Shown here piece by piece: positions 45,341-64,000 of a stretch of DNA of 64,000 nt; the first letter of the stretch is position 1, and each line of letters starts with the position of its first letter. Below the pieces are notes generated by a model, which was not told the DNA's origin, did no database searches, and worked only from the letters and a program-made list of their open reading frames with translations. The position numbers and the translations under genes were made by a program. The stretch comes from an uncultured delta proteobacterium (GTDB taxonomy: Bacteria > Desulfobacterota > BSN033 > UBA1163), in contig CAWHBU010000001.1 in the NCBI GenBank assembly GCA_963827685.1, positions 363,680 through 427,679 on the forward strand, in the 5' to 3' direction.

Positions 45341-45381
45341 TTTTCCTCCCTGCCTGTTGACAAACAAAAAAGAAGAACTCT

Positions 45382-46223: not shown

Positions 46224-46243
46224 TTTGTGAAAGATTTATCAGA
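46224..46243 (+). promoter_or_regulatory. Possible Rex operator upstream of nfnAB
   Basis: TTTGTGAAAGATTTATCAGA: left half matches TTGTGAA, right half is imperfect; abuts the SD. Confidence 0.4.
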
Positions 46244-46257
46244 AAGGAGGGGGAAAA

Positions 46258-47091: not shown

Positions 47092-47102
47092 GGGGGTTTG
47101 AG

Positions 47103-48515
47103 ATGGCAGAGAAAGAAGAAAAAGAGAAAAAACAAAAAGTCCCAAGGCAGAAAATGCCTGAGCAGGAACCCAAAGTGAGGGCGAGGAATTTTGATGAGGT
47201 TCCTTTTGGATACACACCCGAATTGGCGCAGTTGGAAGCGAGTCGCTGTCTTCAATGCAAGAAACCGAAATGTATTGAGGGATGTCCGGTGGAAGTCGAG
47301 ATCCCGGCTTTTGTTAAACTTATTTCGGACGGTGATTTTGCCGGGGCAGCGCGGAAATTGAAATTACGAAACAGTCTCCCTGCCGTTTGCGGCCGCGTCT
47401 GTCCTCAAGAGGACCAGTGCGAAAAGGTTTGCATCGTTGGAAAAAAGGATCAACCGGTTGCTGTCGGCAGATTGGAGCGATTTGCTGCGGATTGGGAGAG
47501 AACGAAAGGAGAAGTCACCATTCCTGAAAAAGCTCCTGCCACAGGGAAGAAAGTGGCGGTCGTGGGATCTGGACCAGCAGGTTTGACCCTGGCAGGGGAT
47601 CTTATTCTTAAAGGACATGAGGTCACGATTTTTGAAGCCCTCCATAAAACCGGAGGCGTTCTGATCTACGGAATTCCGGAATTCCGTCTTCCCAAGGCGA
47701 TTGTCCAGGCAGAGGTCAACTATTTGGAGAAATTGGGTGTCAAGGTAGAGTGTAACTGCGTCATCGGAAGGATCGAGACCGTTGATGAGCTCCTGAAGGA
47801 ATATAATGCTGTATTCTTGGGTTTGGGCGCAGGTCTTCCCCAGTTTTTGAATGTCCCCGGAGAGAACTATTGCGGCATCTATTCAGCCAATGAATATCTC
47901 ACCCGGTCCAATTTGATGAAGGCATACCTCTTTCCTAAATATGATACGCCGATTGCCCGGGGGAAAAATGTGGCGGTCTTTGGAGCAGGGAATGTGGCCA
48001 TGGATTCAGCGAGAACCGCCCTCCGATTAGGGGCGGATACCGTTCGGATCATCTACCGCCGATCGAGGGATGAGATGCCGGCTCGTATCGAAGAGGTTCA
48101 CCATGCAGAAGAAGAGGGCGTTCAATTCTATCTTCTCACGGCTCCTACAAAATTTTTGGGAGACGATAATGGTTGGGTAACCGGCGTGGAATGCCTCCGG
48201 ATGGAATTGGGAGAGCCTGACGAGTCAGGAAGACGCAGGCCGGTTCCCATCAAGGGTTCAGAATTTCAATTGGAGTGCGATCTGGCAGTGGTGGCCATTG
48301 GCGCAGGCGCCAACCCACTTCTTCCTACACAGACACCGGGTCTGGAGCTGAATAAGAGAGGTTATATCGTGGCTGACCTTGAAACCGGAAAGACCACGAA
48401 ACCCCGAGTTTGGGCAGGAGGAGATATCGTGACCGGTTCAGCCACTGTTATTCTTGCGATGGGTGCAGGAAGGAAGGCGGCCAATTCGATTCACGAGTAT
48501 TTGATGGGTAAGTAG
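47103..48515 (+). CDS. nfnB: NADH-dependent reduced ferredoxin:NADP oxidoreductase, large subunit (GltD-like)
   Basis: EASRCLQCKKP.C..GCPV, CGRVCPQE.QCE..C, GSGPAGL, GAGNVAMD, GSATVILAMGAG; follows nfnA. Confidence 0.9.
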   Translation: MAEKEEKEKKQKVPRQKMPEQEPKVRARNFDEVPFGYTPELAQLEASRCLQCKKPKCIEGCPVEVEIPAFVKLISDGDFAGAARKLKLRNSLPAVCGRVCPQEDQCEKVCIVGKKDQPVAVGRLERFAADWERTKGEVTIPEKAPATGKKVAVVGSGPAGLTLAGDLILKGHEVTIFEALHKTGGVLIYGIPEFRLPKAIVQAEVNYLEKLGVKVECNCVIGRIETVDELLKEYNAVFLGLGAGLPQFLNVPGENYCGIYSANEYLTRSNLMKAYLFPKYDTPIARGKNVAVFGAGNVAMDSARTALRLGADTVRIIYRRSRDEMPARIEEVHHAEEEGVQFYLLTAPTKFLGDDNGWVTGVECLRMELGEPDESGRRRPVPIKGSEFQLECDLAVVAIGAGANPLLPTQTPGLELNKRGYIVADLETGKTTKPRVWAGGDIVTGSATVILAMGAGRKAANSIHEYLMGK

Positions 48516-48570
48516 CGTCGGCATTTACTGCTGACGGAATCTATTCGCCCCCAATAAATGGGGGCGCTAC
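48512..48570. repeat. GTAG-type REP doublet (REPIN/BIME-like)
   Basis: GTAGcgtcggcatttactgctgacg ... cgcccccaataaatgggggcgCTAC in inverted orientation. Confidence 0.6.
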
Positions 48571-48579
48571 AATGAACGG

Positions 48580-48610
48580 AAGGGCAGAGCCATCTGGTTC
48601 TGCCCTTTTT
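48580..48610 (+). terminator. Rho-independent terminator of nfnAB
   Basis: aagggcagagcca-tc-tggttctgccctt followed by a T run. Confidence 0.8.
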
Positions 48611-48740
48611 CATTCCATAAATTTATGCAGAGATCTTTCCATTTTTCTTGATCATATAAAGGTGGACATACTTTCGGGGGGAGAAATCAAGGCTTCTTCT
48701 GTAAATGATCTCGTGAAAGATTGACATCTTTTGGGAGTTT

Positions 48741-49175
48741 ATGAAGATCTTGGTAGATGCAGATGCCTGTCCCAGATCCGTTTTGCAGATCTGCATGAGA
48801 CTTGGACGAAAATACGATATCCCTGTCTGGACGGTGGCCAGTTTCAATCACGATATAGAGGCGGATCATCATTTCGTAGTGGGAGACGATTCTCAGGAAG
48901 CGGATATGAAGATCATGAATCTAACCGAGGCAGGAGATGTAGTCGTAACAGGGGATTGGGGATTGGCAGCGATCGTGCTGGGGAAGGGAGCGAAATGTGC
49001 GAGCCCCATGGGCAGGGAGTTTCATCCGGAAAAGATTGGGTTCTTATTGGAGGAGCGCGAGGTCAAGGCGAAAATCCGCCGGGGAGGTGGTAGAACAAAA
49101 GGGCCGAAGAAGAGAACATTGGCAGATGATCAGCGATTCGAGATTCGTTTGGAAAAGATTCTTTTGGGAGAGTGA
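48741..49175 (+). CDS. YaiI/YqxD (DUF188) family protein
   Basis: [33 protein letters not shown]. Confidence 0.92.
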
Positions 49176-49576
49176 AGGCGATACTTTATCTTTCAGGCAC
49201 GTGGACGCTCCCTTTCGGTACGCATGCCAACATTCTGCGGCAGCTTGTGTGTCCCCACTTTCCTCAACAGGTTGAAATAACTTGGGTTGAAAATTCGGTG
49301 ATGTCGGCAGAATTTTCAGGGTAACTATTTTGTCACGTCGGGTATCCGGTATGGAGTCGAACCCTCAAAACATCCTCCTCGCCCTCGCCACCTTTACCTT
49401 CCAGATGCCCGACCGCGACTCCGATTCCCCTATTCCTTCTCCCTCGACTGTTAAGTTGTCTTGGAACCTACATTCCATCCTTGTGTGAAAAGAGAGCACG
49501 GTTCCATAAAAACTGACCTTGAAAAAAAAGTGTTTTCCTTTTACGTTAAGGGTACAAATTTTAGGAGGATAATACT

Positions 49577-51109
49577 ATGGAAAAGTTTCCTTGGTGGAAT
49601 GAAGCACAGATTGAACTTGCTGAGGATGCCAAGAAGTTTACCGACGAGGTTTTAATTCCTATTGGCGAGCGCGATGCCCTGAAGAAAGTTTTTAGTTGGG
49701 AGGGTGTGAAGCAGATGGCTTCCAAAGGCTGGTTCGGCGCACTGATTCCGAAAAAATACGGCGGCCATGCTGAAGAGTGGGGCGTCACGGGTGCCGCCAT
49801 CATCCTTGAAGAGACGTCGCGTGCTGCGGAACTCGGCGGTCCTCTCGGAACCACGATGTACGGCAGCGCCACCCAGATCGTCCACAACGGCAACGAGGAG
49901 CAAAAACAGAAGTGGCTGCCCAGGATAGGGAAGGGCGAGCTTGTCGGCTGCATTACCATGACTGAACCGTATGCCGGTTCCGATGTCGCCGCCATAGAAT
50001 CAACCGCTGTCCGCGAGGGTGATTTCTATATCATCAACGGGAGAAAACGCTACCAGACTGTTGCCGCCGCCGCAGACCTGTACATGTGCTATTTCCTGAC
50101 AAGCTCGAGGCCGGAAGACAAAATGGCGTACACTCACCTCAGCGCTTTCGTGGTGGAGAAGGGAACCCCCGGTTTCCACACTGAGAAAGTGAATGATACG
50201 ATGGGCTATGACGGTCTTTACAATTGCTATTTGAGTTTTGATAACGCCAGAGTTCCTGTTTTCAACCGCCTGGGAGAGGAAGGCCAAGGCTGGAGGATCA
50301 TGATGGGCGGCCTCAATGTCGAGAGGATTCTCAATGCCGCCCCGACGCTTGGGCCCATGCGCGAGTGCATCCGCTACACCCAGCAGCATCTGGAAAGGCG
50401 CGTGCAGTTCGGTCGGCCCACAGGCGACATCGCCACCAACCAGTTCAAGCTGGCGGACATGATCTGGAAGCTTTATCTCAGCAGATTGGTCGTATACTAC
50501 GGTGCTTACTGTGCCGACCTTGGCCGTGACGTGCCGGTGGAGGCAGCCATCTCCAAGATGTTCGCCAGCGATTCCGCCATGGAAACGGCTATCGAGGCAG
50601 TGCAGTGTATGGGCGGTAACGGCATCATGAAGATCTACCCGGTGGAACGGATCATGCGTGATGCCAAGCACGGGCAGATAGCTGCCGGAACTTCAGAGAT
50701 CCTCAAGCTGCTCATCTACCGCCAGGGCGTGAGGGAGATGAAGGCCGACCTTAAGGTTCCGCAAAGAGCGATCGATCCTGATCTCAAGTTACCTTTGCCG
50801 GTCGGCAAACCGCTACCGAAGAAGCCAGGCAAGAGTGAGGAGGACGTGTTCAAAGTACTTGCCGAGAATTACAGGGTGAACCCCGGCCTGCACATGACGA
50901 TGGAGGACATCAAGGAATGGCTCGATATTTCGGACGCAGACCTGGTGAAATTCCTGGAGAGTCTTGAGAAGCAAGGCTTTGCCGGTCTCTACCGCACCCG
51001 CAAGGGCATTTCTCTTGTCAGGGTGACTTACACGGGCCTTCAAAAGGCCCACCCGCCCGAGTATTACCGTTACATCCCAGCTTGGGCCGATCCCAAAGAC
51101 GTGTTTTAA
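49577..51109 (+). CDS. Acyl-CoA dehydrogenase with ~120-aa C-terminal winged-helix-like extension
   Basis: TMTEPYAGSD, RVQFG, MGGNG, IAAGT; tail VLAENYRVNPGLHMT...LESLEKQG. Confidence 0.88.
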   Translation: MEKFPWWNEAQIELAEDAKKFTDEVLIPIGERDALKKVFSWEGVKQMASKGWFGALIPKKYGGHAEEWGVTGAAIILEETSRAAELGGPLGTTMYGSATQIVHNGNEEQKQKWLPRIGKGELVGCITMTEPYAGSDVAAIESTAVREGDFYIINGRKRYQTVAAAADLYMCYFLTSSRPEDKMAYTHLSAFVVEKGTPGFHTEKVNDTMGYDGLYNCYLSFDNARVPVFNRLGEEGQGWRIMMGGLNVERILNAAPTLGPMRECIRYTQQHLERRVQFGRPTGDIATNQFKLADMIWKLYLSRLVVYYGAYCADLGRDVPVEAAISKMFASDSAMETAIEAVQCMGGNGIMKIYPVERIMRDAKHGQIAAGTSEILKLLIYRQGVREMKADLKVPQRAIDPDLKLPLPVGKPLPKKPGKSEEDVFKVLAENYRVNPGLHMTMEDIKEWLDISDADLVKFLESLEKQGFAGLYRTRKGISLVRVTYTGLQKAHPPEYYRYIPAWADPKDVF

Positions 51110-51343
51110 TCTCAGTAACCTCGCTCCTCGCAGCAGAGCTGCGAGGAGCAGTGAGTACAATTCTATTGTGACGGCTTGGTCTTGAGATGTGAATTAGGAA
51201 GTGGAATTGGAGTCATCCTTCATCCATAATAGGTTCATCCGTTCACAATCCTCAATCGTCACTTTTAAGCGTTTAGTAAAAATAAACTACGACTGATATG
51301 AATTTCCCCGTTGATCATTGATTGAAATTGAGAGGGGTAGAGT

Positions 51344-52285
51344 ATGGGCTATTTAAGTGTCTGTGTCATGGGTGTGGGTGGTGTGGGAGGTTATTTCGGA
51401 GGGAAATTAGCCCATACCTTCTCTTCAAATCCTGAGTCTCCTGTCAATATCTTTTTTGTGGCCCGTGGAAAGCAACTTGAGGCAATCAAACAAAATGGAC
51501 TTGTCCTTAAATCTCCTGAGTTCGGAAGTATCCGTTGTAGACCAAAGCTCGCTACGGAGAGAATCAGTGATCTTCCCCCCATTGACCTCTTTTTTATTTG
51601 TGTGAAAGGATATGACCTCACGGAGGTTGCCGCTTCCATTAAAGATTACATCAAGGAGAAGACTATTATTTTGCCTCTTTTGAATGGCGCAGACGTTCGG
51701 GAAAGACTTCGCACTAAAGTTAAGACGGGAATCATTCTTCCTGCCTGTGTCTACATCTCTGTCCATATCGAAGAACCAGGGGTCGTCGCCCATATTGGAA
51801 AACCAGGGAAAATGATCTTTGGGAAAGATCCGGATCATCCTGATTACATCCCTCATGAAATATTCAGGGTTTTTGAAAAATCCTCAATTGATTATGAGTG
51901 GAAGGATGATGCCAATCCGGCCATCTGGGAGAAGTATCTATTCATCGCCAGTTTCGGCCTGGTCTCGGCTCGGTATCATCGAACTCTCGGAGAAATTTTG
52001 GAGGAGCCCTTGCTGAGAGAAGAGGTGATCGGAATTATGAATGAAGTTCATTCCATTGCTTTGAAGAAGAATATTAGACTGCCTGACGGAATTGTAGATC
52101 TTTCTCTCAAGAATGCAGCCATGTTTCCCCACGACACACAAACCTCATTACAGAGAGATATCCAACAGAAGAAAGGTAAAAGTGAGCTGGAGCTTTTCGG
52201 TGGTACGATTATCGATCTCGGGAAAAAATTGGGCATCCCCACGCCAACGACAAGAAAAATATATCTTGAATTGGAAGGAGTCTAA
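51344..52285 (+). CDS. panE: Ketopantoate reductase family protein
   Basis: GVGGVGGYFGG, VARG, VKGYDL, PLLNG, WEKY.F, TSLQRD, SELE. Confidence 0.88.
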   Translation: MGYLSVCVMGVGGVGGYFGGKLAHTFSSNPESPVNIFFVARGKQLEAIKQNGLVLKSPEFGSIRCRPKLATERISDLPPIDLFFICVKGYDLTEVAASIKDYIKEKTIILPLLNGADVRERLRTKVKTGIILPACVYISVHIEEPGVVAHIGKPGKMIFGKDPDHPDYIPHEIFRVFEKSSIDYEWKDDANPAIWEKYLFIASFGLVSARYHRTLGEILEEPLLREEVIGIMNEVHSIALKKNIRLPDGIVDLSLKNAAMFPHDTQTSLQRDIQQKKGKSELELFGGTIIDLGKKLGIPTPTTRKIYLELEGV

Positions 52286-52419
52286 CCCCCGCAATATCCA
52301 TACACCTCAAAAGCCTCTCGCACCTGACGTAAACGCATCGGAAGTGCTTACATTGTCACCACGAGCCTGTAATATGAATACGCAACGCTTACCTCATCGT
52401 TTACAAAGGAGCAAGTCTT

Positions 52420-53814
52420 ATGCCCGTTGATAGGCTTCAGAAATTTTTTGAACCAAAAGGGATCGTGATTGTGGGAGCACGAAGGTCTTTCGGTTTTGGT
52501 TATGGCATCCCCCTCTTTCTACAGAAACTTGGATGGGGGGACCGCCTCTATCTTGTTAATCCTGCTGGTGCGGAGCTGCATGGTCAGAAGGTTTACAAAC
52601 GAGTCCAAGACGTCCCCGCACCTGTTGATCTGGCGATCGTCATTGTTCCTGCGGAGGCAGTTCCTGATGTGATGGAGGAGATTGGAGAGCGAGGGATAAA
52701 AAATGTAATCATTGAGAGTGCTGGTTTTGCTGAGATTGGTGAGAAAGGCATGACCTTACAGCAGAGGGTAAAAGCTGTTGCCATGCAATACCGTATGCGG
52801 GTCATTGGTCCGAATTGTGTGGGCGTGGTCAATACTGAAAATAGATTTTGTTCAGTAGAATTAATGGAGGAATCACTTGCTCCGGGACCGGTTTCTGTCA
52901 TTGCCCAGAGCGGCGTTTTTGGAAACATTCTGCTGGATCATCTCCATCAGTACGGTCTTTTTATTTCGAAAGCGGTCACGCTGGGCAATCGCGTGGATGT
53001 CGATGAATCTGAGGTGCTGGATTATCTTAAGAATGATCCCTCCACACGAGTCATCATGCTGTATCTTGAGGGAGCCGCAAACGGCAGGCGATTCATGAAG
53101 TCACTTGCCAATGTGACTCAGAATAAACCTGTTCTGATATTAAAGAGCGGCAGGACGCAGGCCGGCAAGCAAGCGACCGCCTCTCATACGGGCAGCCTGT
53201 CAGGACAGGATCATATCTATCATGCGGTTTTTGCACAGACAGGGGCGATTCGGGCAGAAAGCTTTTCCCAGCTCATCGATCTGGCGCGGGTCTTCGCAAC
53301 TCAGCCATGGTCTAAGGGCAATCGCCTTGGCATTATTACAACAAGCGGGAGCCTTGGGGCCTTGGCAACAGATGTCGCCGTGTCCAATGGACTCACCGTG
53401 CCTCCCCTTTCCTCATTCATAGTGAATCAGGCACGGGAAATATCGCCGGATTGGATGAATGTTAAAAACCCTCTGGATGTCGGCCCCTCGGGGATCCAGG
53501 ATAGGCTCCTACCGATGCTATTGTCAGATCCGGAAATTGACATGGTGCTTGTGATTATGGTCCTACCCTATGCAGTGGTCAGTCACTTCAAGAGCGCTGG
53601 CATTACGGTAAAGGATTGGTTGGGGGATGTAGCCTCCGTTCGGGAGCGACATCCAGATAAACCCCTGGTAGGTGTGGTCGTCGGCCACCCTGCGTTTGTG
53701 GATGATATTGCTTCCGTTTGCGGTCGGTTCGTACCGGTTTTCACTTCACCTGAACCGGCAGCGCATGCCCTTGCGACATTGTGGCATTACTCTAAAGCAC
53801 GAAAGAAAATTTAG
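52420..53814 (+). CDS. ADP-forming acyl-CoA synthetase alpha subunit
   Basis: SAGFAE, GPNCVG, QSG, SHTGSL phospho-His motif, NPLD. Confidence 0.9.
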   Translation: MPVDRLQKFFEPKGIVIVGARRSFGFGYGIPLFLQKLGWGDRLYLVNPAGAELHGQKVYKRVQDVPAPVDLAIVIVPAEAVPDVMEEIGERGIKNVIIESAGFAEIGEKGMTLQQRVKAVAMQYRMRVIGPNCVGVVNTENRFCSVELMEESLAPGPVSVIAQSGVFGNILLDHLHQYGLFISKAVTLGNRVDVDESEVLDYLKNDPSTRVIMLYLEGAANGRRFMKSLANVTQNKPVLILKSGRTQAGKQATASHTGSLSGQDHIYHAVFAQTGAIRAESFSQLIDLARVFATQPWSKGNRLGIITTSGSLGALATDVAVSNGLTVPPLSSFIVNQAREISPDWMNVKNPLDVGPSGIQDRLLPMLLSDPEIDMVLVIMVLPYAVVSHFKSAGITVKDWLGDVASVRERHPDKPLVGVVVGHPAFVDDIASVCGRFVPVFTSPEPAAHALATLWHYSKARKKI

Positions 53815-54090
53815 TGTGTCTTTTGTAATACGGATCAATTAGAGACAATGGTTTAAAGAAAGGGAAGCCAATGGTTTTCTTTAAAAGAAGAGGTGGTTCA
53901 ATACGTTAAATTGTATTATTAAGAGAACTTAACTCTGTCCCTGTCCCCCTGAGAGAGATTCACCATCACATCTGATCTCTCAGGAATCAAGGGCATCATT
54001 CATCCAATCATTGAACCTCGATCAATACCTTGTTACGATTGCCCGACGTGAAGTCTCCACATTCTCTTTTTCATTTTGTGGAGGGAGGTT

Positions 54091-56355
54091 ATGAACGAAA
54101 CACACATTCCTAAGATCGCGCAAGAATTGGATCTCACCCCCAAACAGGTCCAGGCCACAGCAGACCTCTTGAACGAAGGGGCCACGGTACCCTTTATTGC
54201 TCGATACCGAAAGGAAGCCACTGGTTCTTTGGATGAGGTTGCCATCACAGCGGTTCGAGACCGACTCAGTCAACTCATGGAACTGGACAAGCGCCGTGAG
54301 GGCATCCTCAGATCCTTAGAGGAACGGGGACAGCTTACCGATGAGTTGAAGGAGAAGATCCTCTCGGCGGAGACCATGGTCGTTCTGGAGGATATCTATT
54401 TGCCCTACCGGCCCAAACGTCGGACCCGGGCAATCATCGCCAAGGAAAAGGGACTGGAGCCGCTGGCCCAGCGCCTTTTTAGCCAGGAGGAAATGGATCC
54501 CATGGCCGAAGCATCTGCTTTTATCGATCCCGAAAAGGGGGTTGAGTCCGCGGAGGATGCCCTCGCAGGAGCGCGTGACATCATTGCAGAATGGGTCAAT
54601 GAAGATCAGACCGCCCGTGCCAGGATGCGTGATTTTTATTCATCAAAGGCTGTTTTTAAGGCAAAGGTTATTCTGGAGAGAGAGGCCGAAGGAATCAAGT
54701 ATAGGGATTACTTTGACTGGGAAGAATCGGTGACCAGAGCGCCATCGCACAGGATTCTTGCCATGAGGCGAGGGGAAAAGGAAGGTTTTCTCACACTGAG
54801 AGTTTTGCCTCCTGAAGAGGAAGCCCTCGACATCCTCGATGGTATTTTTGTTAAGGGGGAAGGGTCTGCATCACAGCATGTCAGGATGGCCGTGCACGAT
54901 GGCTACAAGAGACTTCTCTCTCCTTCCATGGAGACCGAGATACGCTTGGCAACAAAAAAGCGGGCAGATGAGGAGGCGATCAGGGTCTTTGTCGAGAACG
55001 TCCGTCAACTTCTTCTTACTTCTCCTCTCGGCCAGAAGAATGTCCTGGCCATTGATCCTGGTTTCCGGACCGGTTGCAAAGTGATCTGCCTGGACCGCCA
55101 AGGGAAGCTCTTACATACCGAAACCATTTATCCTCTGCAGTCCGAAAAAGCTGCAGCCGACGCAGGCTCAAAGATCCTTAAGATGTGCGAGCGGTTCCGT
55201 ATCGAGGCGATTGCCGTTGGGAACGGCACAGCAGGAAGGGAGACAGAGACTTTCATCCGCAGCCTCGATCTCTTAAAGAAGATTCAACTAGTGATGGTCA
55301 ACGAGAGCGGTGCGTCCGTTTATTCGGCATCCGAGGTGGCCCGGGAGGAGTTTCCTGACCAGGATGTGACCGTGCGAGGAGCTGTATCCATCGGCCGGAG
55401 ACTGATGGACCCTCTGGCAGAGCTGGTAAAGATCGACCCGAAGTCGATCGGTGTTGGACAGTACCAGCACGATGTGGACCAGGGAGCGTTAAAGAACAGT
55501 CTTGATGATGTGGTGGTTAGCTGTGTTAACCGCGTGGGCGTGGAAATCAATACAGCAAGCAAGCAGCTTCTTACCTATGTTTCGGGTTTAGGACCGCAGC
55601 TTGCAAAGGGGATTGTGGAGTACCGGAATGAGCACGGTCCGTTTCAATCGAGGGAAGCATTGAAGCAGGTGCCTCGCCTGGGACCCAAAGCCTTTGAACA
55701 GGCTGCAGGGTTTTTACGCATCAGGGATGGCGAAAACCCGCTGGATCGAAGTGCGGTCCATCCGGAGAGCTACCCTATTGTCGATGCCATGGCCAGGAAT
55801 CTGGGCTGCTCGGTGCTGGATCTGATGCGCGGCGAGAAGCTCCGGGAGAGAATCGATCTCATGCAATACGTCTCGGATAAGGTGGGCCTTCCTACGTTGA
55901 ATGATATCCTGTCGGAACTCTCCAAACCCGGCCGCGATCCGCGTGAGCAGTTCGAAACCTTCCAATTCGCAGAAGGGGTTGAAAAAATAGAGGATGTAAA
56001 ACCCGGCATGAAGCTTCCTGGAATCGTGACCAACATCACCGCCTTTGGTGTCTTTGTCGACATTGGCGTCCATCAGGACGGGCTGGTCCATATCAGCCAG
56101 GTTTCCAACCGATTTGTGAAGAACCTCGCGGAGATCGTAAAGGTTCATCAAAAGGTAATCGTGACGGTGCTGGATGTGGATCTCGAAAGAAAGCGGATTT
56201 CCCTTTCCATGAAGGACAGCCGGCCCCAACCCGATATGGTTGCAAAGAGGGAAGAGAGAAAGAAGGAAGAGACGAGAAAGGAAAGGAGGCAGAAACAGAA
56301 AAGCGCGTTTACAAATAACCCGTTTGATGATGCTTTCAGAAACAGGAATCAATAG
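54091..56355 (+). CDS. tex: Tex RNA-binding transcriptional accessory protein
   Basis: GATVPFIARYRKEATG, DPGFRTGCK, SIGVGQYQHDV, C-terminal S1 domain. Confidence 0.97.
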   Translation: MNETHIPKIAQELDLTPKQVQATADLLNEGATVPFIARYRKEATGSLDEVAITAVRDRLSQLMELDKRREGILRSLEERGQLTDELKEKILSAETMVVLEDIYLPYRPKRRTRAIIAKEKGLEPLAQRLFSQEEMDPMAEASAFIDPEKGVESAEDALAGARDIIAEWVNEDQTARARMRDFYSSKAVFKAKVILEREAEGIKYRDYFDWEESVTRAPSHRILAMRRGEKEGFLTLRVLPPEEEALDILDGIFVKGEGSASQHVRMAVHDGYKRLLSPSMETEIRLATKKRADEEAIRVFVENVRQLLLTSPLGQKNVLAIDPGFRTGCKVICLDRQGKLLHTETIYPLQSEKAAADAGSKILKMCERFRIEAIAVGNGTAGRETETFIRSLDLLKKIQLVMVNESGASVYSASEVAREEFPDQDVTVRGAVSIGRRLMDPLAELVKIDPKSIGVGQYQHDVDQGALKNSLDDVVVSCVNRVGVEINTASKQLLTYVSGLGPQLAKGIVEYRNEHGPFQSREALKQVPRLGPKAFEQAAGFLRIRDGENPLDRSAVHPESYPIVDAMARNLGCSVLDLMRGEKLRERIDLMQYVSDKVGLPTLNDILSELSKPGRDPREQFETFQFAEGVEKIEDVKPGMKLPGIVTNITAFGVFVDIGVHQDGLVHISQVSNRFVKNLAEIVKVHQKVIVTVLDVDLERKRISLSMKDSRPQPDMVAKREERKKEETRKERRQKQKSAFTNNPFDDAFRNRNQ

Positions 56356-56477
56356 ATTATTTCAAAAAATTTTCTTCATCAAAAAGCCGGGAAACTAATT
56401 TTACTTCATCTCTTCGAAATCAAAGACATCCCCCAGCCAACAATACAATCCCGGTCGGCTTCTCACTGGTGAGACGC

Positions 56478-57947
56478 CTATTCTTGAGAAGCAGAAGTTA
56501 GGATTTTGTCTCGCAAGTGCGTGTATTGAAACGCAGCCTCAATTGCCCGGGCTGCTCTCTGCGGTCCTGGGAAGATCGGGACTCCTCGCTCTATGAGTCT
56601 TCTCAGTTGCTGGTCCTTTAGACTCTGTAAGGTATAGCCGACAAAAGGTTTATCGTGGGTTTCAAGCAATCGGATGATTGCATCGGACTGATAACCCACT
56701 AGCCTATCGGCCTGTTCTGCAATCTGATCCGTGGGGACACCCACTTGCCTCAGCATGCGTCTGAGCCTCCGGCTAGGCGTGAAGAAATAGAAGAGCAGGA
56801 AGTCTGCGTTCTTCTCCTCCAGCAACGCCTTCGGGATCTCTGAGAAGTAGTCCGTCAGATTCTTGCCAAAGGTGAAATCCAGCGGGTTACTGATACTCCC
56901 TGTCTTGGGCATGAGAGGGCTTAATCTTTTGATTGTCTCTGGTGAAAGCGACGGCAATTCAAGACCCGCCCGTCCGCAGGCATCCGCCGCCTCAGCTCCG
57001 GGCCCTCCGGAATGGGTTTGAATCAGCACACGTCGCCCTGTGGTTTTGGGAAAAGTGCCCAGCATCCAACAGTAATCGAACATTTCCATGATCGACCGTG
57101 CCCGAATGATCCCGCTCTGACGGAAGATGCCTTCGTAGAGTCTATCCGGTCCTGCCAATGCCCCGGTGTGTGAAAGCCCTGCCCGGCTGCCCGCTTCCGA
57201 CCCGCCGATATAGAAGGCCACGATGGGCTTTTTCGGAACGATCGATCTCGCCGTTTCCACAAACGCCCTCCCCCTGCGGATGCCCTCGATATAGAGGGCG
57301 ATCACTCTCGTATCGGGACAGGCGCCGAGGTACTCCATACAGTCGACGATATCGATATTGGCTTCATTCCCCACACTAAACGCCGTACTGAATCCCAGGG
57401 CATAATGGGAAAGATAGGTAAACATCTGGGTCACAAAACTCCCGCTCTGAGAAGCCATGCCAATGAAGCCTGGAGCGCCTTCAAAGGTCATGAAGGTCGT
57501 GTTCAGCTTGTGGCGAGGATTGGTCACCCCGATACAGTTCGGGCCTAAAAAGCGCATGCCATGTTTTTTGGCAACGGCGATAAGGTCTTTTTCAAGTTTG
57601 ACCCCATTCCCGCCCACTTCCTTAAAACCGCCCGAAATGACAATGGCATGTTTGATGCCCTTCCTGCCGCATGCGTCCATCGTCTCGGACACGAGTCGTG
57701 TGGGGAGTACGATCAGCGCCAGGTCAGGCACCTTGGGCAGATCCAGGACGCTTCGGTAAGCCTTGAGATTCTGCACCTGATTCTCTTTGGGGTGAATGGG
57801 ATAGATCTCACCTTCAAATCCCAAATCCAGAACAGAATCGAGGAGACTTGTTCCCATTGAAGAGGCGTTATTGGAGGCCCCGAAAAGGGCGATGCTTTTC
57901 GGGTTGGCAATAGAATATAGAGGACTGGCTTCAATGGATTCTATCAT
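56478..57947 (-). CDS. ADP-forming acyl-CoA synthetase alpha subunit
   Basis: GGFKE, GPNCIG, SQSG, SHTGALAG, NPLD. Confidence 0.9.
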   Translation of the reverse strand: MIESIEASPLYSIANPKSIALFGASNNASSMGTSLLDSVLDLGFEGEIYPIHPKENQVQNLKAYRSVLDLPKVPDLALIVLPTRLVSETMDACGRKGIKHAIVISGGFKEVGGNGVKLEKDLIAVAKKHGMRFLGPNCIGVTNPRHKLNTTFMTFEGAPGFIGMASQSGSFVTQMFTYLSHYALGFSTAFSVGNEANIDIVDCMEYLGACPDTRVIALYIEGIRRGRAFVETARSIVPKKPIVAFYIGGSEAGSRAGLSHTGALAGPDRLYEGIFRQSGIIRARSIMEMFDYCWMLGTFPKTTGRRVLIQTHSGGPGAEAADACGRAGLELPSLSPETIKRLSPLMPKTGSISNPLDFTFGKNLTDYFSEIPKALLEEKNADFLLFYFFTPSRRLRRMLRQVGVPTDQIAEQADRLVGYQSDAIIRLLETHDKPFVGYTLQSLKDQQLRRLIERGVPIFPGPQRAARAIEAAFQYTHLRDKILTSASQE

Positions 57948-58636
57948 TTTGCGTTTCTTCTCAACACAACGAGTGCGTCCACAGCCACTAGGCGACCTTC
58001 CGGAGTGATGATCATAGGGTTGATATCGAGCTCGGATACCGTTTCAAGTTCTAATCCGATCTGCCCAACCGCCATGAGGGTGCGGCAAAGGATTTCCATA
58101 TCAACGGGTTTCTGCCCGCGGAAGGCGCCGAGAATCGTTTTGAAATGCAGCTCTTCGGTCATGTCCTTTGCCTCGATCATGTCAAAGGGAGCCATGCGGA
58201 ATACGGTATCCTGAAACACCTCGGTCATGATTCCGCCTATCCCTAGCATCACGCAGGGGCCGAACTGGGGATCGCGGTTCAACCCGACGACCAGTTCGCG
58301 CTGCCCTGGCACCATTTCCTGAACCAGGACCCCTTCAAGTTCCAGGTCGACACTCGGGATAATACGTTCGTAGGCTTCACGGACATCTCTTTTGCTCCTG
58401 AGGTTCAGCTCAATACATCCACGCTCGCTTTTGTGCATCAGCTCGGCTGAACATGCCTTGAGTACCACCGGAAACCCGAGGCCGTCTGCGGCAGATACCG
58501 CTTCGTCGGCACCGCGGGACAATTTTTCTCTGGTGACGGGGATGCCGTAAAGGCTGAGTAATTTCTTTGACTCGTATTCGGAGAGTGCCCGTTGCCCTCT
58601 CTGGAGGGCAGATTGTATTAAATCATCTGCTCGCAT
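57944..58636 (-). CDS. ADP-forming acyl-CoA synthetase beta subunit (ATP-grasp)
   Basis: LSEYESK.LL..YGIP, GFPVVLK, HKSE, DPQFGP, ELDINP. Confidence 0.92.
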   Translation of the reverse strand: MRADDLIQSALQRGQRALSEYESKKLLSLYGIPVTREKLSRGADEAVSAADGLGFPVVLKACSAELMHKSERGCIELNLRSKRDVREAYERIIPSVDLELEGVLVQEMVPGQRELVVGLNRDPQFGPCVMLGIGGIMTEVFQDTVFRMAPFDMIEAKDMTEELHFKTILGAFRGQKPVDMEILCRTLMAVGQIGLELETVSELDINPMIITPEGRLVAVDALVVLRRNAK

Positions 58637-58735
58637 ATTTTCCCAAAACCATCACTTTTCCATTCTGAGATATTAGGATCAAAAACGTGATCACCTTTTC
58701 TGCAACCCCCCATAGGGATCATTCTCCACATTCAA

Positions 58736-59656
58736 CTAAGGAGCAACCAGAATCTTGATTTCTTCTTTCTCTTTTCTTGCCAGGACTTCAAATCCTTCAG
58801 CAGATATTTGCTCAAGGGGTATGACTTTCGTGATGATCAAGTCTGGTCGGGTCCCTTTGGACTCTATCCAGGACATCGCCAGAGGAAGATTGGCGGAGTT
58901 TGTGCCGATCATGGTGGTCTCCCGGGTGACAAATCCGAGCATATGCACCGAGACCCGGTCAGTAAAGATTCCCTGGACAATGACTTTGCCTTGATAGCGG
59001 ACAGAAGCTAAACAATCTTTCAGGGTGGCCTCGATTCCCACCGCCTCGACCGCCACATCCACTCCCCTGCCAGCGGAGAGCTCTTTGATCTTGGCAGGAA
59101 TTTTGTCTGTCAGAGGATTCAAAACCAAAGTGGCGCCCAGCTCTTCTGCTTTTTTTCTTCTTGTTTCTGAAATGTCCGTCACGTAAATCTTTTCCACCCC
59201 AACCGCTTTAAGGCCAAGCAAGACCATGAGTCCCACCGGCCCAGCACCCGCAACCAGAATGGTGTCGCTTGGTTGGATGCCTCCCTTTTCGATTGCATAA
59301 GCAGCACCGGAAAGAGGTTCAACCACAGCTGCCCGTTCCCAGCTCATATTCCCGGGCTTCTTAATCATCCTTTCCTGTGGGCATACCAGGTATTCGGCGT
59401 ATGCCCCTTTTTGGACAGCAATAACGTGATCCTCAACTTGAAATGCCTTGACTTCGCGGCCGACTTCGATGATTTCGCCGCAGGCTTCATGCCCAAAGGA
59501 GCTCTGAGGAAATAGACCGTGTAGGTACTCGTGCAGATCCGATCCGCAGATACCGCAATATTTGACCCTCACTTTCGCCTCGCGGGGTCCAGGCTTCGGT
59601 TCGGCCACTTCTTCAACCCGCAGATCACGGATGCCATGGAATAAAGCTGCTCTCAT
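58736..59656 (-). CDS. Zn-dependent MDR alcohol dehydrogenase (butanediol/sorbitol DH-like)
   Basis: CGICGSDLH, GHE, GAGPVG; no structural-Zn Cys loop. Confidence 0.9.
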   Translation of the reverse strand: MRAALFHGIRDLRVEEVAEPKPGPREAKVRVKYCGICGSDLHEYLHGLFPQSSFGHEACGEIIEVGREVKAFQVEDHVIAVQKGAYAEYLVCPQERMIKKPGNMSWERAAVVEPLSGAAYAIEKGGIQPSDTILVAGAGPVGLMVLLGLKAVGVEKIYVTDISETRRKKAEELGATLVLNPLTDKIPAKIKELSAGRGVDVAVEAVGIEATLKDCLASVRYQGKVIVQGIFTDRVSVHMLGFVTRETTMIGTNSANLPLAMSWIESKGTRPDLIITKVIPLEQISAEGFEVLARKEKEEIKILVAP

Positions 59657-59762
59657 AAGAACTTGATGACCTTTGTAAACTCGTTTGAAAAGTTCAGCTG
59701 TAGAGCTTTTTTTCACAAAGTTTAACAGATATGAAAGGAAAGTGCCAATGTGGAATGGCCTT

Positions 59763-61192
59763 CGTCAAGCCAATTTAGAAATGTCCTATTCTTACCAAAG
59801 TAGAAATGTCCGGTTTTCAGGGTTGAGATTCAATGGGCCTTGCTCGTTCATAGCGATGTTTACCAAACTTGAATCCCCTCCAGGGATGGTTCGTTGGGGG
59901 AGATGGAAGATTTTCTCATTCTCGCCGCAGCCAAAGGTCTTTTCTCTATGATGGTCTTTCGGTGATTTCCCTGAATCTCAGGGCGCGGTTTTTATGGGTG
60001 ATGTGTATGGAACCATCCATCCGATCTTGGACCATTACCCTCGAAGTATTGACCTTATCCTCAACCTGGTAGAGCTTACGGCTGTGTGCCACGGTGAAGT
60101 CATTCCGCAGAGCTCTCTGTGTCTTCTTACATAAGATCGCATCCAGAGCCAACCCTCTCCCTAAGGGCCTGTGTAGATCGCCTCTGTGCGTAGGACTCAC
60201 AGAGAACCTCCGGTTATAAATGGGAAGATACTCCTCTAAGAAAGCATTGGCTTCTTCGAGAGTCCTGATTCCTCTTAAACGCATCTCCTTGACCAGCCGA
60301 TCTTGAAACGTCCCGAAAAGCCGCTCAATCCGACCCTTGGCCTGCGGTGAGTTCGCATGCACAACCTCCACCCCAAGCTCTCTTAAGGCCCTCTCAAAAT
60401 CGCTTAACGGCTCCACATCATTCAACTCCTCCTCGATGGTTGGTTTCGCCGTCGATTTATACGTCTTATATCGATCCAAATAAACGCTCAACGGTAACCC
60501 ATACTTCTGGATATACCGCTTGAAACTGTCCATCGCAGGAATCGTCCCTTCATAGTCGTAAAACCCCCCAAACACTCTCCCGGTGGCATCGTCAATGATG
60601 CCCATCAAAACACACCATGGCCCTCTCCCTTCAAACCAATCGTGATGAGAACCATCCATCTGCACCATCTCTCCTACATGCTGCTTCCGCTCCCTCCATT
60701 GACGATGTCTCCTACGTCTCCGGCTCTTCCTCCAGTCCCCCGTTCCAATCAGCCACATCCGCAAGGTCTCATCATTGACCCGAATCCCATTTCTCTCCAG
60801 AAGCTTCTCCGAGGCCAGGGTCGGACCAAAATCCTTGTACTGCCTCCGGTACAGGTTGATGACCCTTTCTTTCATCTTATCGGATATCCTCCGGTTTGAC
60901 GGCCTCCCTCGCGATCTGTGGATGATCCCTCTGCTCCCTTCACTCCTTATCCGCTTAACGATCCTTCGAATCTGCCTCCCACTGAGCGACAGGATCTCCG
61001 CTGCCTCTACCTGCTTGACCATCCCCTCCAGAACCTTCTCAATGACATGCAACCGCCTTAATTCTCCCTGACGTGCCATAATCATGTCCTCTTCTGCCAT
61101 CCTGCCCTCCTCCAAAAAAAGGGCATTGTAGCATGTCTCAAAGAGGACATTTCTATTTTGGCCAATTAGGACATTATCATTTTGGGATTACA
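59763..61192 (-). mobile_element. IS1202/ISNCY-family insertion sequence (1430 bp)
   Basis: Ends TGTAATCCCAAAATGATAATGTCC... and ...GGACATTTCTAAATTGGCTTGACG, each with two internal AATGTCC repeats, flanking a DDE transposase. Confidence 0.88.
59817..61100 (-). CDS. ISNCY/IS1202 DDE transposase; C-terminus disrupted (stop at 59946)
   Basis: DFGPTLASEKL, QMDGSHHDWFE, IDDATG, ANSPQAKGRIER.F.TFQDRL; a PPTNHPWR tail lies downstream of the stop. Confidence 0.88.
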
Positions 61193-61755
61193 CGCTGAAC
61201 GATCTTCTTGTCTGAACGATCTTCTGGGTTAGACAGTAAAGGAAAGGAGCAAAATCCCAGAACTGACGCGCTGATGAAACAGCTTTCTGTCAGGCGCTCT
61301 TAATCCCGGCTGCTCGTTTGGCCTTCTCTTTGTATTTCTTCAAGGGTGATTCGGCCAGGATCATCATTTTTTGGGCTGCCATAGACCCTTCGGCATGAAC
61401 AGTGGTCACCTCATGAAACGCGGATTCATGGGAGCAAACCATGCGTTGAGCGGCGTGGATCATCCTCAGCCGGTCCTCAGTGCTAAACTTGGCCGAACCT
61501 CCAAGATACTATCACTCTATATATTTACACAAAATTTACACAAAGGAAGAGCAAATGGGAATTCGGAGGTATCCCGCGGACTCCCCCCTTTGCAACCTAG
61601 CTTAACACCTTTGGCGCACGATTGTAAGGTCCTCCAGCAGGTAGGGGGAAATGGGAAAAAATTGGATGGTGCGGGAATTAGTTATATCGCCCTTGAATCC
61701 TAGAAAGCGATAATTATCCTTATAATCAGAATAATCAGAAGGGAGGTTTTATCCC

Positions 61756-61980
61756 ATGGACAAAATGATTCGCTGGGAAGACTTGCAGTCTGGGTGTACT
61801 CTTACGGTTTGTGCGGGGACGGAGGCAGGACTCTTTGAGAAGATCTTGGAACATGGCCGGACGGTTCACGGCATGAAAGAATTCTCGCCGGATTTTTATA
61901 ATAAGGTGCGCGCTTCAATTCGAGAGGGATACTGCGACCTGGAAGATGAACTGTGCCAGTACGGAGAGTGCTGCTGTTAG
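61756..61980 (+). CDS. Small DUF1059-like metal-binding protein
   Basis: GC...V.A.TE..L...ILEH...VHGM pattern; Cys-rich tail; SD GGGAGG. Confidence 0.6.
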   Translation: MDKMIRWEDLQSGCTLTVCAGTEAGLFEKILEHGRTVHGMKEFSPDFYNKVRASIREGYCDLEDELCQYGECCC

Positions 61981-62030
61981 GACGGGCAAAGAGGATATCG
62001 TTCTTGATACAAGAGACAAGGGACGTTGTC

Positions 62031-62132
62031 GTGGCAACCATAGTACATTTCGAAATTCCCGCGGATAATGTCGAAAGAGCGAAATCATTAGACGCAAAGC
62101 TTTTCGGCTGGGAAGTCAAGGAGGTGGAATAG
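62031..62132 (+). pseudogene. Truncated VOC/glyoxalase-family gene
   Basis: ATIVHFEIPADNVERAKS...LFGWEV then a stop after 33 codons. Confidence 0.7.
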
Positions 62133-62304
62133 AATTTCTTACCGATTCCTCGCCTGGTAGTTTCCGTTTTTCCACAGGCACCTTTAGTGACGAATTTGGA
62201 CAATTTTTAACCATTTGTCCGAACTCGGCCACAAAATTCGGCACTCCGCAACATTATATCTTCAAAAAACTATTAAAAAACAAAAAGTTGTAAGTCTCGA
62301 AAAT

Positions 62305-62321
62305 TTGGTATAATATATGCT
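62305..62321 (+). promoter_or_regulatory. sigma54 (-24/-12) promoter
   Basis: TTGGTATAATATATGCT (GG-N10-GC); IHF-like AAACAAAAAGTTG at 62278-62290. Confidence 0.6.
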
Positions 62322-62467
62322 TATTAAATTTCCAGTGATTTCTTAAAGGTAGTAGTGTTTCTTAATCGGGCAGAAGGAAACCTGGTCTGTGGTGGAGGGG
62401 CAAGAGGCCTTGCTCAATTTAATTTTGTATCGAATTCTTCGCCCATAATTTAATCTTTCATAGTGCC

Positions 62468-63621
62468 ATGAGCTTCGTCTTCATCGGAAAGAACGAGTCC
62501 AAGATTCGCCACAACATCCTCCGCGGTGTATACGAAGAAAATCTCTTTATGCTCTCTAAGGGCCGTCCAGCCTTATCCCGTCGGGGATCCTTCCCCTTAA
62601 AGAAAATTCTCTTGTCTGCGGTGCTCTGCGTCTTGGCGGTCCTGATCCATGGCCAATACACGGGCAGTTCGTTCGCGCCAGCGGAACCGACCGCGAATAC
62701 GAGGATTCTCCTTGCTTCCCTTCCCGAGCCAGCAGGTCCACCGCGGATAGGAGTGTCCCCCCTGCACCCCATCCCACGGCGAACGTCTCAGCAGAGCCAA
62801 CCCCGGATATGAAGGAATATCCTCTTCTTCCTATGCCAAGTGTTTCTTCGGAGGGCATAGCGAACACCTCCGAGTTCGTTGCCTTTCTGAACAATCGGAA
62901 TGGTTCCTTCAGCAGGATGCTCGGCCTGAAAATCAAGACGATCATGATCGATGCCGGCCATGGCGGGACTGACTCGGGCAGTATCGGAAAATTGGGTACC
63001 ATGGAAAAGGATATCACCATCGATATCGCAAAGAGGTTGAAAACGCATCTCATCAAAAACGGCCGCTGCCGTGTGGTCATGACGAGGCAGGACGACTCGT
63101 CTGTGCCCCTTGAAAAACGGGTTGTTCTTGCCCAGGAAGCGAAAGCAGACCTCTTCATCTCAATTCATCTCAATTACTTACCGCGCAGACCCATTAATAT
63201 TGTTGAAACCTATTATTTCGGACCTTCCGATGACGAAAAAACATTGAGGCTCGCGCAGCAAGAAAACGAAGGATCAGAATACGGGCTCAGCGATTTCAAG
63301 GAAGTCATGGAAAAGCTTGGCAAGACCATGAAGCTTCAGGAGTCTAAGAGGCTTGCAGAATCGATCCAGGCCAATCTGTTCCTGAACAGCAGGAAGCATA
63401 GCGAATACATACAAAACCGCGGCGTCAAGAGGGCACCATTTGTTGTCCTTCTCGGAGTGGACGTACCCGCCGTGCTGGCGGAGGTCTCCTGTCTCAGCAA
63501 TCTCGAAGAGGAGGAGGAACTCAATTCTGAGAGTCACAGAGAAAACATTGCCGGGTATCTTGCAGCCGGCATTTTCGATTATCTAGGTAAAGGAGCGCTT
63601 AGCCATGAAGCCAAAAGATGA
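62468..63621 (+). CDS. N-acetylmuramoyl-L-alanine amidase (Amidase_3) with N-terminal TM; appears split into 62468-62812 and 62809-63621
   Basis: IDAGHGG.D.G, EK, ADLFISIH.N, APFVVL, P.VLAE. The catalytic frame is open back to about 62560 and has no SD at 62809. Confidence 0.85.
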
Positions 63622-64000
63622 GCAGAAACAAGAGAACATCCTGTTTGTCGGCATCGATCTTGGAACATCACGAAGTGCGATCTCTTCAAGTAACGGCAAG
63701 CGGGAATGGATCGAGAGCTACGTCGGCTGGCCGAAGGACTTTATCGCAGAGCAGGTCGTCGGCAAACCGGTACTCTTCGGAGCCGAAGCCCTGCAGCACC
63801 GGCTCTCCCTCGATTTCTGCAGGCCCCTTGAACGGGGCATCATCAAGGAGGGGATCGAAAGCAGCGAGAGGGCGGTCAAGGAAATCATCAGGCATCTTGT
63901 TCATCTTGCAAAGCCTGAGTCCGGCCAAAAGATCCATGCGGTGGTCGGGGTGCCCGCCGAATCGCTAAAAGTCAATAAGCTTGCCATCCGGAAGGCGGTT
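63605..64000 (+). CDS. MamK-like bacterial actin (3'-truncated by the window edge)
   Basis: MKPKDEQKQENILFVGIDLGTSRSAISSSNGKREWIESYVGWPKD...FGAEAL...RPLERGIIKE...AVVGVPAES; SD AAGGAG; overlaps the amidase stop. Confidence 0.85.
   Translation, partial: MKPKDEQKQENILFVGIDLGTSRSAISSSNGKREWIESYVGWPKDFIAEQVVGKPVLFGAEALQHRLSLDFCRPLERGIIKEGIESSERAVKEIIRHLVHLAKPESGQKIHAVVGVPAESLKVNKLAIRKAV

Follow-up and report, generated by a model that had tools for sequence, protein, structure and literature searches.

A MamK-family actin encoded with a peptidoglycan amidase: a candidate module for cytoskeleton-guided cell-wall hydrolysis

Why should a bacterium with no magnetosome genes in view carry a MamK-like actin gene directly behind the gene for a peptidoglycan amidase? 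The question is raised by the end (62468–64000) of a 64,000-nucleotide (nt) stretch of DNA, hereafter the window, from an uncultured delta proteobacterium (assembly GCA_963827685.1, contig CAWHBU010000001.1). The answer favoured here, at a probability of about 0.6, is that the pair of genes specifies a cell-wall hydrolase module guided by the cytoskeleton, which might serve in cell separation or in local remodelling of the wall. The initial annotation of the window had proposed a cytoskeleton-guided wall-remodelling module, and this proposal now finds support in the synteny of the pair at 78 of 78 testable loci, in the separate clade formed by the actins, and in a conserved amidase tail with a predicted docking site on the actin.

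The features on which the argument turns are the following, in window coordinates.

62468..63621, + strand: gene for an N-acetylmuramoyl-L-alanine amidase (Pfam Amidase_3, 156 bits), split as assembled by a 1-nt deletion
62516..62542, + strand: conserved cytoplasmic tail motif ILRGVYEEN, proposed as a filament-docking helix from motif conservation and a predicted interface
62597..62662, + strand: hydrophobic segment (residues 44–65), predicted signal-anchor transmembrane (TM) helix with a basic stretch before it and a putative in–out topology
62736..62737, + strand: 1-nt deletion causing the apparent amidase frameshift, a single gap against the 99.1%-identical locus of genome G004
62941..63573, + strand: Amidase_3 catalytic domain with an insert of ~40 amino acids (aa); Pfam match to residues 45–255 of a 270-aa open reading frame (ORF), profile positions 1–172 of 174
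63591..63595, + strand: Shine–Dalgarno sequence of the actin gene (AGGAG), located within the amidase coding sequence 9 nt 5' of the ATG
63605..64000, + strand: MamK-family actin-like ATPase gene, first 132 codons, with an ATG start, open at the 3' end and cut by the contig end

A MamK-family actin encoded with an amidase

The second gene of the pair starts before the first has ended. An unlisted ORF from 63605, overlapping the amidase stop, had been noticed in the initial annotation, and the ORF listing agrees: the amidase stop codon, TGA, lies at 63619–63621, giving an overlap of 17 nt. The window's last base is the end of contig C1 (the window being C1:363680–427679), and ~39% of the actin gene is present (132 of ~342 codons); public contigs continue for ~1067 nt beyond that point. 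The translation of 63605–64000 contains VGIDLGTSRS...SYVGWPKD...AVVGVPAE; it scores 119.3 bits (E 7.6e-34, positions 1–116) on the NCBIfam MamK model and 20.1 bits on Pfam MreB_Mbl, the latter under the cut-off of 27. As a fragment of 132 aa is too short for the cut-off of the full-length MamK model, the full-length scores given below are those of a paralogue, P0001.

P0001 is encoded in a second module of the same kind on contig C6 (locus L004), which is 91% identical to the window over 63400–64000 and 82.5% identical over 62193–64000. One strand there encodes, in order, a 367-aa amidase (P0003), the 342-aa actin P0001, a 322-aa protein (P0002) and an 82-aa membrane protein, and the amidase and actin genes again overlap by 17 nt. 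P0001 shares 94.7% identity with the window actin over their 132 common residues. It belongs to the MamK family by NCBIfam NF040964, exceeding the curated cut-off with 421.4 bits against 400, whilst remaining below the cut-offs for BeeR (220.7 bits against 530) and for MreB (84.9 against 293 on PRK13927; 72.1 against 365.75 on TIGR00904). The best solved structure is likewise MamK (5jyg, E 3.4e-90), with residues 6–341 aligned nearly gaplessly on residues 5–340, followed among the other solved actins by BeeR (8r2n, 2.9e-42) and MreB (1jce, 2.6e-15). The closer resemblance to MamK than to MreB that had been read from the fragment thus holds for the whole protein. The ATPase motifs (phosphate-1, phosphate-2, connect and adenosine) are preserved, with D18, G20, T21, E144, D162, G164, G166, G289 and G290 invariant in the alignment, and on the strength of these motifs the amidase-linked actin presumably forms ATP-dependent filaments.

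The pairing recurs well beyond this genome. A locus scan with an alignment of eight actin sequences, limited to a single genome for each species, yielded 594 confirmed loci; the best 80 of them (56–96% identity) were examined. At 78 of these a homologue of P0003 is encoded directly upstream on the same strand, and the other two start at a contig edge, so that the pair is present at 78 of the 78 loci where it could be seen; a survey of amidase–actin synteny had been among the checks suggested at the outset. By record title the carriers include Thermodesulfobacteriota, 'delta proteobacterium', Syntrophaceae, Desulfobulbaceae, Aminicenantes, Nitrospirae, Thermodesulfovibrionales, Ca. Sulfobium, Rokubacteria, Methylomirabilales, Gammaproteobacteria, Rhodospirillaceae and Rhodothermales, among them the cultured Roseithermus sacchariphilus. 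The pair spans at least six phyla. The 3' end of the amidase gene overlaps the actin start at 31 of 35 loci checked, by a median of 26 nt, an arrangement which indicates that amidase and actin are translationally coupled. Clustering of the neighbours across the best 80 loci revealed no other widely shared gene besides the pair itself. The amidase precedes the actin at all seven congener loci, where identities are 93–96% for the actin, 73–80% for the amidase and 68–74% for the protein encoded third.

Only 174 clusters at 50% identity, among 1.84 billion proteins, reach an E-value of 1e-30, and the names of ten cluster representatives are uninformative ('rod shape-determining protein' or 'MamK family actin-like protein'). 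Many MamK-family representatives (P0129, P0130, P0133–P0135, P0138, P0140 and others) are proteins of 500–1232 aa with a C-terminal actin domain and large N-terminal extensions. An apparent actin fusion in Rokubacteria (L066) was rejected: the ORF continues into a prephenate dehydrogenase gene beyond an actin match that extends only to residue 301, which most likely reflects a read-through or frameshift.

The place of these actins within the family was examined in a tree of 93 rows, obtained by a quick IQ-TREE search under LG+C20 and rooted on MreB. The rows comprised 31 amidase-linked actins from across the phyla, 12 other actins, 49 full-length representatives of the 150 listed, and MreB, with fragments and long fusion proteins excluded. 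All 31 amidase-linked actins, together with the unlabelled representatives P0124 and P0125, make up one clade with 100% support in the Shimodaira–Hasegawa-like approximate likelihood ratio test (SH-aLRT). The MamK proteins of magnetosome clusters (L132/L133) and the tandem and coiled-coil-partnered subtypes fall outside it. An actin-family phylogeny had been recommended by the initial annotation, and its outcome is a group that stands apart from the magnetosome-cluster MamK. The window's genus nests within the Nitrospirota branch (supports 97–99) which, together with the patchy occurrence described below, points to lateral acquisition.

Other subtypes of the family came to light within the phylum of the window's genome. 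A MamK-family gene is present in 17 of the 401 genomes sampled from it (G000 included), and 13 of the 16 other carriers were compared, three being left out because their genus was already represented by G166 and G055. An amidase adjoins the actin at L134 and L137. The genomes with L132 and L133 are congeneric, and the annotated one of these two loci, L133, is of magnetosome type, with a MamB/MamM-like cation diffusion facilitator (CDF) of 236 bits, FeoB, a MamK of 481 bits and coiled-coil proteins. No amidase was found at nine loci (L128–L131, L135, L136, L138–L140), and none of the annotated ones among these (L128, L129, L131, L135, L138) resembles a magnetosome cluster. In other Desulfobacterota, L128–L131 (annotated for L128, L129 and L131) hold tandem MamK-family pairs scoring 360–494 bits on the MamK model, which look like another uncharacterised MamK subtype. 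At L135, L136, L138 and L139 a MamK-family actin (409–435 bits) follows a long coiled-coil, SMC-like protein, and these actins have a well-supported clade of their own.

Since P0001 exceeds the NCBIfam cut-off for MamK, the pair might be taken for what is left of a magnetosome gene cluster, or for a silent part of one. This is extremely improbable. Across the whole genome (94.5% complete, 8% contamination) the best match to MamB reaches 134 bits against a cut-off of 350 and the best match to MamA 103.5 bits against 200; these proteins are of generic CDF and tetratricopeptide repeat (TPR) type, and such scores are likewise raised in 13 of 14 control genomes. No mam genes lie around either copy of the pair, the neighbours being amidase, SPOR protein, insertion sequence (IS), restriction-modification and ABC-F genes, and the clade is distinct from that of the magnetosome-cluster proteins at L132/L133. 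As far as MamA and MamB are concerned, the remark that no magnetosome genes were in view extends from the window to the genome.

The MamK model finds three matches in this genome, namely the two amidase-linked copies and MreB (76.6 bits). Two situations had been named in which the idea of a new module would fall, a bona fide magnetosome cluster and a canonical MreB followed by mreCD. Neither is what the genome contains: the pair has no MamA or MamB above cut-off to accompany it and is in a clade apart from L132/L133, and the real mreB (489.8 bits), mreC and mreD stand together on contig C4. An ftsA gene (484.8 bits) is located on contig C3, and a third Amidase_3 gene, on contig C2, encodes the housekeeping amidase. 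As mreBCD, ftsA and the C2 amidase are all present, the pair represents an extra actin and an extra amidase.

A conserved amidase tail predicted to dock on the actin

In the assembly the window amidase is divided between ORFs 62468–62812 and 62809–63621. The contigs of all four public runs compared, from four studies, have an extra A after 62736, and the frameshift is most likely an assembly error, the gene being one intact ORF from 62468. The paralogue P0003 is intact, and the two copies score 156–159 bits on Pfam Amidase_3. The stretch is contained in 20 peat and wetland metagenome runs from 19 studies; no RNA run is listed among the public runs that contain it. A second such break affects an ABC-F ATPase gene on C6, whose two ORFs are 103 and 473 aa long (L004 12024–12335 and 10651–12072). 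The assembly appears to carry single-base indel errors, and other apparent pseudogenes in it should be judged accordingly.

The catalytic part of the amidase resembles the division amidases. Amidase_3 is the sole Pfam domain of P0003, with no AMIN or further domain detected, and the zinc and catalytic residues are kept, H148, E163, H217 and E322 being invariant in 36 of 36 aligned orthologues. The best solved matches are E. coli AmiC (4bin, 1.1e-32), Bartonella AmiB (3ne8) and E. coli AmiA (8c2o), all with alignments that extend across the ~40-residue insert, while insert-free amidases such as CwlV and LytH align only as far as residues 235–247. Residues E249, N250 and E275 within the insert are invariant in the same 36 orthologues. 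The insert is predicted to correspond to the regulatory-helix region of division amidases. A Foldseek search with the AlphaFold2 model of P0003 placed AmiA first (2.4e-18) and AmiC among the top ranks. P0003 misses the NCBIfam equivalog cut-offs for AmiC (115.7 of 700), AmiA (118.2 of 400) and AmiB (84.9 of 532).

In that model (mean predicted local distance difference test score, pLDDT, of 75) a helix at residues 6–28 is followed by a second at 44–65, by disorder at 66–136 and by a confident catalytic domain, with helices at 240–292 where the pLDDT is lower at 250–270, in the region of the insert. Kyte–Doolittle maxima of the hydrophobic segment lie at ~2.0–2.6 over 19 residues in the orthologues, and no signal-peptidase site is conserved after it in the 36-orthologue alignment. 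The model suggests a bitopic protein whose cytoplasmic tail leads through a TM helix and a disordered linker to a periplasmic domain of AmiA/B/C type.

It is in the tail that the amidase carries its most distinctive mark. A consensus of approximately [KR]xxIL[RK]GVYE[ED]NL[RK]I is recognisable in every phylum among 68 amidases with a complete 5' end. N25 is invariant and L18 and Y22 are nearly so in the 36 orthologues; the spacing of the three (i, i+4, i+7) puts them on the same helix face. A loose version of the pattern was run against all six-frame ORFs of this genome from 80 aa upwards (10.46 million residues in total); two ORFs were returned, and both are the actin-linked amidases. In the amidase of Roseithermus sacchariphilus (L097 6804–7982) the tail motif is doubled in tandem before the TM helix (EILRAVYEENRRI ... 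QVLRGVYETNRAM).

The tail is predicted to bind the actin. Complexes of the actin with amidase residues 1–45 were predicted, each partner with a 36-row alignment, alongside three controls. The tail–actin complex scored 0.84, and the best control 0.02. That mark is attained by 116 of 157 solved complexes and by 2 of 215 mismatched pairs, counts which are only rough here because custom alignments were used. Contacts agreed to at least 95% between three prediction runs, with partner pLDDT at or above 63. Tail residues 10, 13–14, 16–22, 24–26 and 28–29, among them L18, V21, Y22 and N25, are placed in contact with actin residues 113, 125–126, 129, 140–142, 150, 153, 155–156 and 175–177 and with residues 330, 333–335, 338 and 341–342. 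On the actin, the predicted site comprises the C-terminal helix and the cleft that separates subdomains IA and IIA.

Some lineages encode a further protein, which appears to belong to the same theme. Among the best 80 loci its gene follows the actin at 24, which belong without exception to the genus or to Nitrospirota. The C6 protein, P0002, has a C-terminal SPOR domain (Pfam 55.3 bits, cut-off 21), and the profile of its family (18 orthologues) matches both the SPOR domains of CwlC (1x60) and DedD (6ztg) and, over positions 3–125, receiver domains (YycF, 9.4e-17; also PleD, PhoP and CheY). Most of the 18 sequences have R, K, N or S at the phospho-acceptor position, so that the N-terminus would be a pseudo-receiver. 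The predicted layout places the pseudo-receiver in the cytoplasm and the SPOR domain in the periplasm, joined by a TM helix, and the protein misses the NCBIfam equivalog cut-offs for FtsN and DedD. SPOR domains bind glycan strands without peptides, which are the product of amidases; this ties the third protein to amidase activity.

A mechanism may be sketched as follows. The actin, a distinct MamK subfamily, would polymerise into ATP-dependent filaments in the cytoplasm. The amidase would be made in step with it through translational coupling and inserted in the inner membrane with its N-terminus inside, where the tail helix (~ILRGVYEENL) would bind the hydrophobic IA/IIA cleft of the actin. 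The AmiA/B/C-type catalytic domain would then work in the periplasm on a flexible linker of ~70 residues, and the filament would set from inside where peptide stems leave the glycan strands. In the three-gene version the SPOR/pseudo-receiver protein would read the denuded glycan, and a feedback loop to the cytoplasm could thereby be closed. A module of this kind, spread laterally, would be accessory to the machinery of MreB, FtsA and the housekeeping amidase.

Points against a guided hydrolase, and other readings

Several observations weigh against such a guided hydrolase, and they fall under three heads: the predicted interface, the amidase N-terminus and the distribution of the genes. As to the first, the actin interface is hardly more conserved than the rest of the protein (0.78 against 0.72) and no more specific to the clade (0.41 against 0.40). 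None of the nine clade-specific actin residues (W35, Y39, F46, G83, V91, K122, V132, F170 and L320) lies within it, so that this attempt to corroborate the docking site failed. That the interface is not clade-specific would accord with the two proteins being co-regulated for a common process, such as division, whilst the actin neither bound nor positioned the amidase, and synteny by itself is no proof of contact. A relationship of this kind is nonetheless rather unlikely, given that the tail motif is confined to actin-linked amidases and strictly kept across the phyla, that the genes are coupled in translation, and that the complex so far outscored its controls.

The nature of the predicted site also calls for caution. 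Helices in the cleft of an actin fold are known from the solved complexes of ParM with ParR and of actin with WH2; since the cleft is a generic helix-binding site of actin folds, the favourable docking result may partly reflect these known complexes. Moreover, the IA/IIA cleft makes the longitudinal contact in actin-like filaments, so tail binding may be confined to filament ends or compete with polymerisation. A tentative variant, held with appreciably less confidence than the guided hydrolase in its general form, is a cytomotive machine like ParMRC. Here the tail helix would sit in the barbed-end cleft, and filament growth or treadmilling would move or space the amidase independently of FtsZ and MreB, with the three-gene SPOR/pseudo-receiver protein feeding back. 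If true, this would be the first actin-driven, inside-out positioning of a peptidoglycan hydrolase, in the form of a laterally spread, self-contained kit.

The second head concerns the amidase N-terminus. A stretch resembling RRxSFxLKK before the hydrophobic segment, seen in this genus and some others, is reminiscent of a degenerate twin-arginine motif, and E. coli AmiA and AmiC, the closest solved relatives of the enzyme, are substrates of twin-arginine translocation (Tat). The amidase may thus carry a cleaved export signal. The actin could then be an export or targeting factor: the segment would be a cleavable Tat or Sec signal with a long n-region, to which the actin would bind before export as a chaperone or spatial cue, leaving the mature enzyme free in the periplasm. 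That the predicted contact is limited to the n-region helix accords with this. Yet the twin-arginine motif is not conserved, the RR pair having been lost in many orthologues, including many from Nitrospirota, and no small-x-small site is conserved after the segment. The hydrophobicity maxima of 2.0–2.6 over 19 residues are high for the h-region of a Tat signal, and the actin belongs to a polymerising family, not to the Hsp70-type chaperones. An export factor is, on these grounds, an unlikely explanation, and a permanent anchor as required by the guided hydrolase is preferred.

The third head is distribution. Of the 14 other genomes of the genus, 8 have a MamK-family gene, which none of 26 relatives outside the genus possesses; in the class of a Nitrospirota carrier the figure is 20 of 151 genomes. 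Such patchiness implies that the module is dispensable. The third protein is more erratic still within the eight loci of the genus: it is full-length at four, a remnant at two and absent from two, and with reduction or loss at four of eight it too must be dispensable.

Patchiness, with the signs of lateral transfer, would suit the cargo of a mobile element, for instance a plasmid or phage partition actin together with a lysis amidase, and the surroundings of both copies deserve attention in this respect. Upstream of the window module lies one further feature:

59764..61192, - strand: multi-copy IS element (transposase 59946–61115; helix-turn-helix and rve_3 domains)

Copies of this IS are present on contigs C2, C5, C6 and C7. 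The window module (62100–64000) is 99.1% identical to that of G004, which represents another species of the genus, and 82.5% identical to the C6 copy of its own genome. The flank at 44000–59700 is syntenic with the congeners G004 and G010 at 83–87% identity, and the switch to 99% comes at the IS. A recent exchange of the module between congeners would account for this, as would a chimeric join at the IS that produced the last 2.8 kb of the contig. The C6 copy, for its part, is found amid a restriction-modification-like set, a VapC-type toxin–antitoxin pair and a transposase fragment (L004 5319–9129), mobile-looking surroundings that are not seen at the congener loci.

Mobile cargo is nevertheless a very unlikely account of the pair. 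These settings, and the near-identity of the window module to another species' copy next to flanks at ~84%, speak for it, but no neighbouring gene other than the pair is common to the best 80 loci. Matches in PHROGs are generic only (endolysin, 98 bits; partition protein, 41 bits), PADLOC returned nothing relevant, and a scan of viral contigs gave a single relative, of 45% identity, which belongs to an unrelated subtype and has no adjoining amidase. The amidase, furthermore, has a predicted anchor and a putative regulatory insert like that of the division amidases.

Contig C1 was considered as a contaminant and the idea rejected: its IS copies are 99–100% identical to those on other contigs, and only 14% of C1 matches elsewhere. 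The genome is rich in several IS families, many with copies 99–100% identical across contigs; on C1 they are sited (in contig coordinates) at ~2352–3923, 43403–44726, 57929–59199, 89497–90827 and 132827–133943. Contig C13 is a 94%-identical duplicate of C1:386489–396557 (window ~22810–32878). Between the IS and the module is a DUF1059 ORF (61756–61980; 74 aa) with three terminal cysteines. Counts of promoter-like sites (1, with 2.2 expected) and terminator-like sites (4, with 3.4 expected) in 61200–64000 give no signal.

Comparison with known systems

The nearest relative by sequence is the magnetosome MamK of Magnetospirillum magneticum AMB-1 (PDB 5jyg, 5ljv, 5ljw; NF040964), which belongs to the same family and has the same ATPase motifs. 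The amidase-linked actin differs in occupying a separate clade and in adjoining an amidase instead of mam genes, and magnetotaxis is not known among its carriers. Whereas MamK in the magnetosome has an adaptor such as MamJ, the partner proposed for this actin is a bitopic wall hydrolase. There is a practical consequence, in that the NCBI MamK model and the mamK marker will catch these genes in non-magnetotactic bacteria of peat, wetland and sediment; matches labelled 'MamK' therefore need a check of their context.

The presence of MamK homologues in some non-magnetotactic genomes has been noted before (Lefevre et al. 2013, as cited in bioRxiv 10.1101/682252). Both BeeR (PMC11929497; PDB 8r2n) and saltatorellin (bioRxiv 10.1101/817700) are MamK-like, filament-forming actins of non-magnetotactic bacteria. 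An amidase is not mentioned in the available portions of these two texts, and the partners of both actins are unknown or different. By its scores on the BeeR model and on 8r2n the amidase-linked actin is not BeeR. No description of an amidase–MamK pairing was found in the literature searched, which covered the field incompletely and consisted of main texts without supplements.

Parallels of another kind are offered by two well-studied machines. In ParM–ParR of plasmid R1, and in actin–WH2, the partner inserts a short helix in the barbed-end IA/IIA cleft, and the amidase tail is predicted at the same place; the cargo here would be a membrane enzyme, unlike the DNA moved by ParM–ParR. The E. coli divisome contains a circuit of FtsA, FtsN (a SPOR protein) and AmiA/B/C. 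As in that circuit, the present system combines a cytoplasmic actin fold, a bitopic SPOR protein for denuded glycan and an amidase that makes denuded glycan. It differs in that the amidase itself is predicted to be anchored and to have an actin-binding tail, and in that its SPOR protein has a pseudo-receiver where FtsN has a short tail. It would also be parallel and optional, since FtsA and a housekeeping amidase are present as well.

How bacteria aim wall hydrolases, enzymes that are potentially lethal to them, is a central open problem. Known targeting makes use of periplasmic activators or septal targeting domains. The hypothesis advanced here is easy to test: point mutants are defined by the tail motif, and one carrier, Roseithermus sacchariphilus, has been cultured.

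In function, the system nearest to the present pair is that of the bactofilin BacA and its hydrolase. In the report on this system, the bacA gene adjoins the gene for LmdC, a bitopic M23 endopeptidase, in Hyphomonas neptunium and Rhodospirillum rubrum, and the short N-terminal cytoplasmic tail of LmdC binds the BacA polymer through a conserved motif and so recruits the enzyme (PMC10945521). The likeness to that account lies in a polymer gene beside the gene for a bitopic hydrolase with a conserved cytoplasmic tail, the binding being a prediction in the present case. On the same account the two differ in polymer, enzyme and tail element: an ATP-dependent actin would take the place of a nucleotide-independent bactofilin, an amidase that of an M23 enzyme, and a predicted helix that of a beta-hairpin tail. 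Wall hydrolysis guided by the cytoskeleton is a known principle, of which the amidase–actin pair would be a variant not yet described, with its function read from computation. If the reading is right, actin–amidase coupling is a second, ATP-driven answer to the aiming of hydrolases beside that of bactofilin and M23 endopeptidase, and the MamK family gains a role outside magnetosomes.

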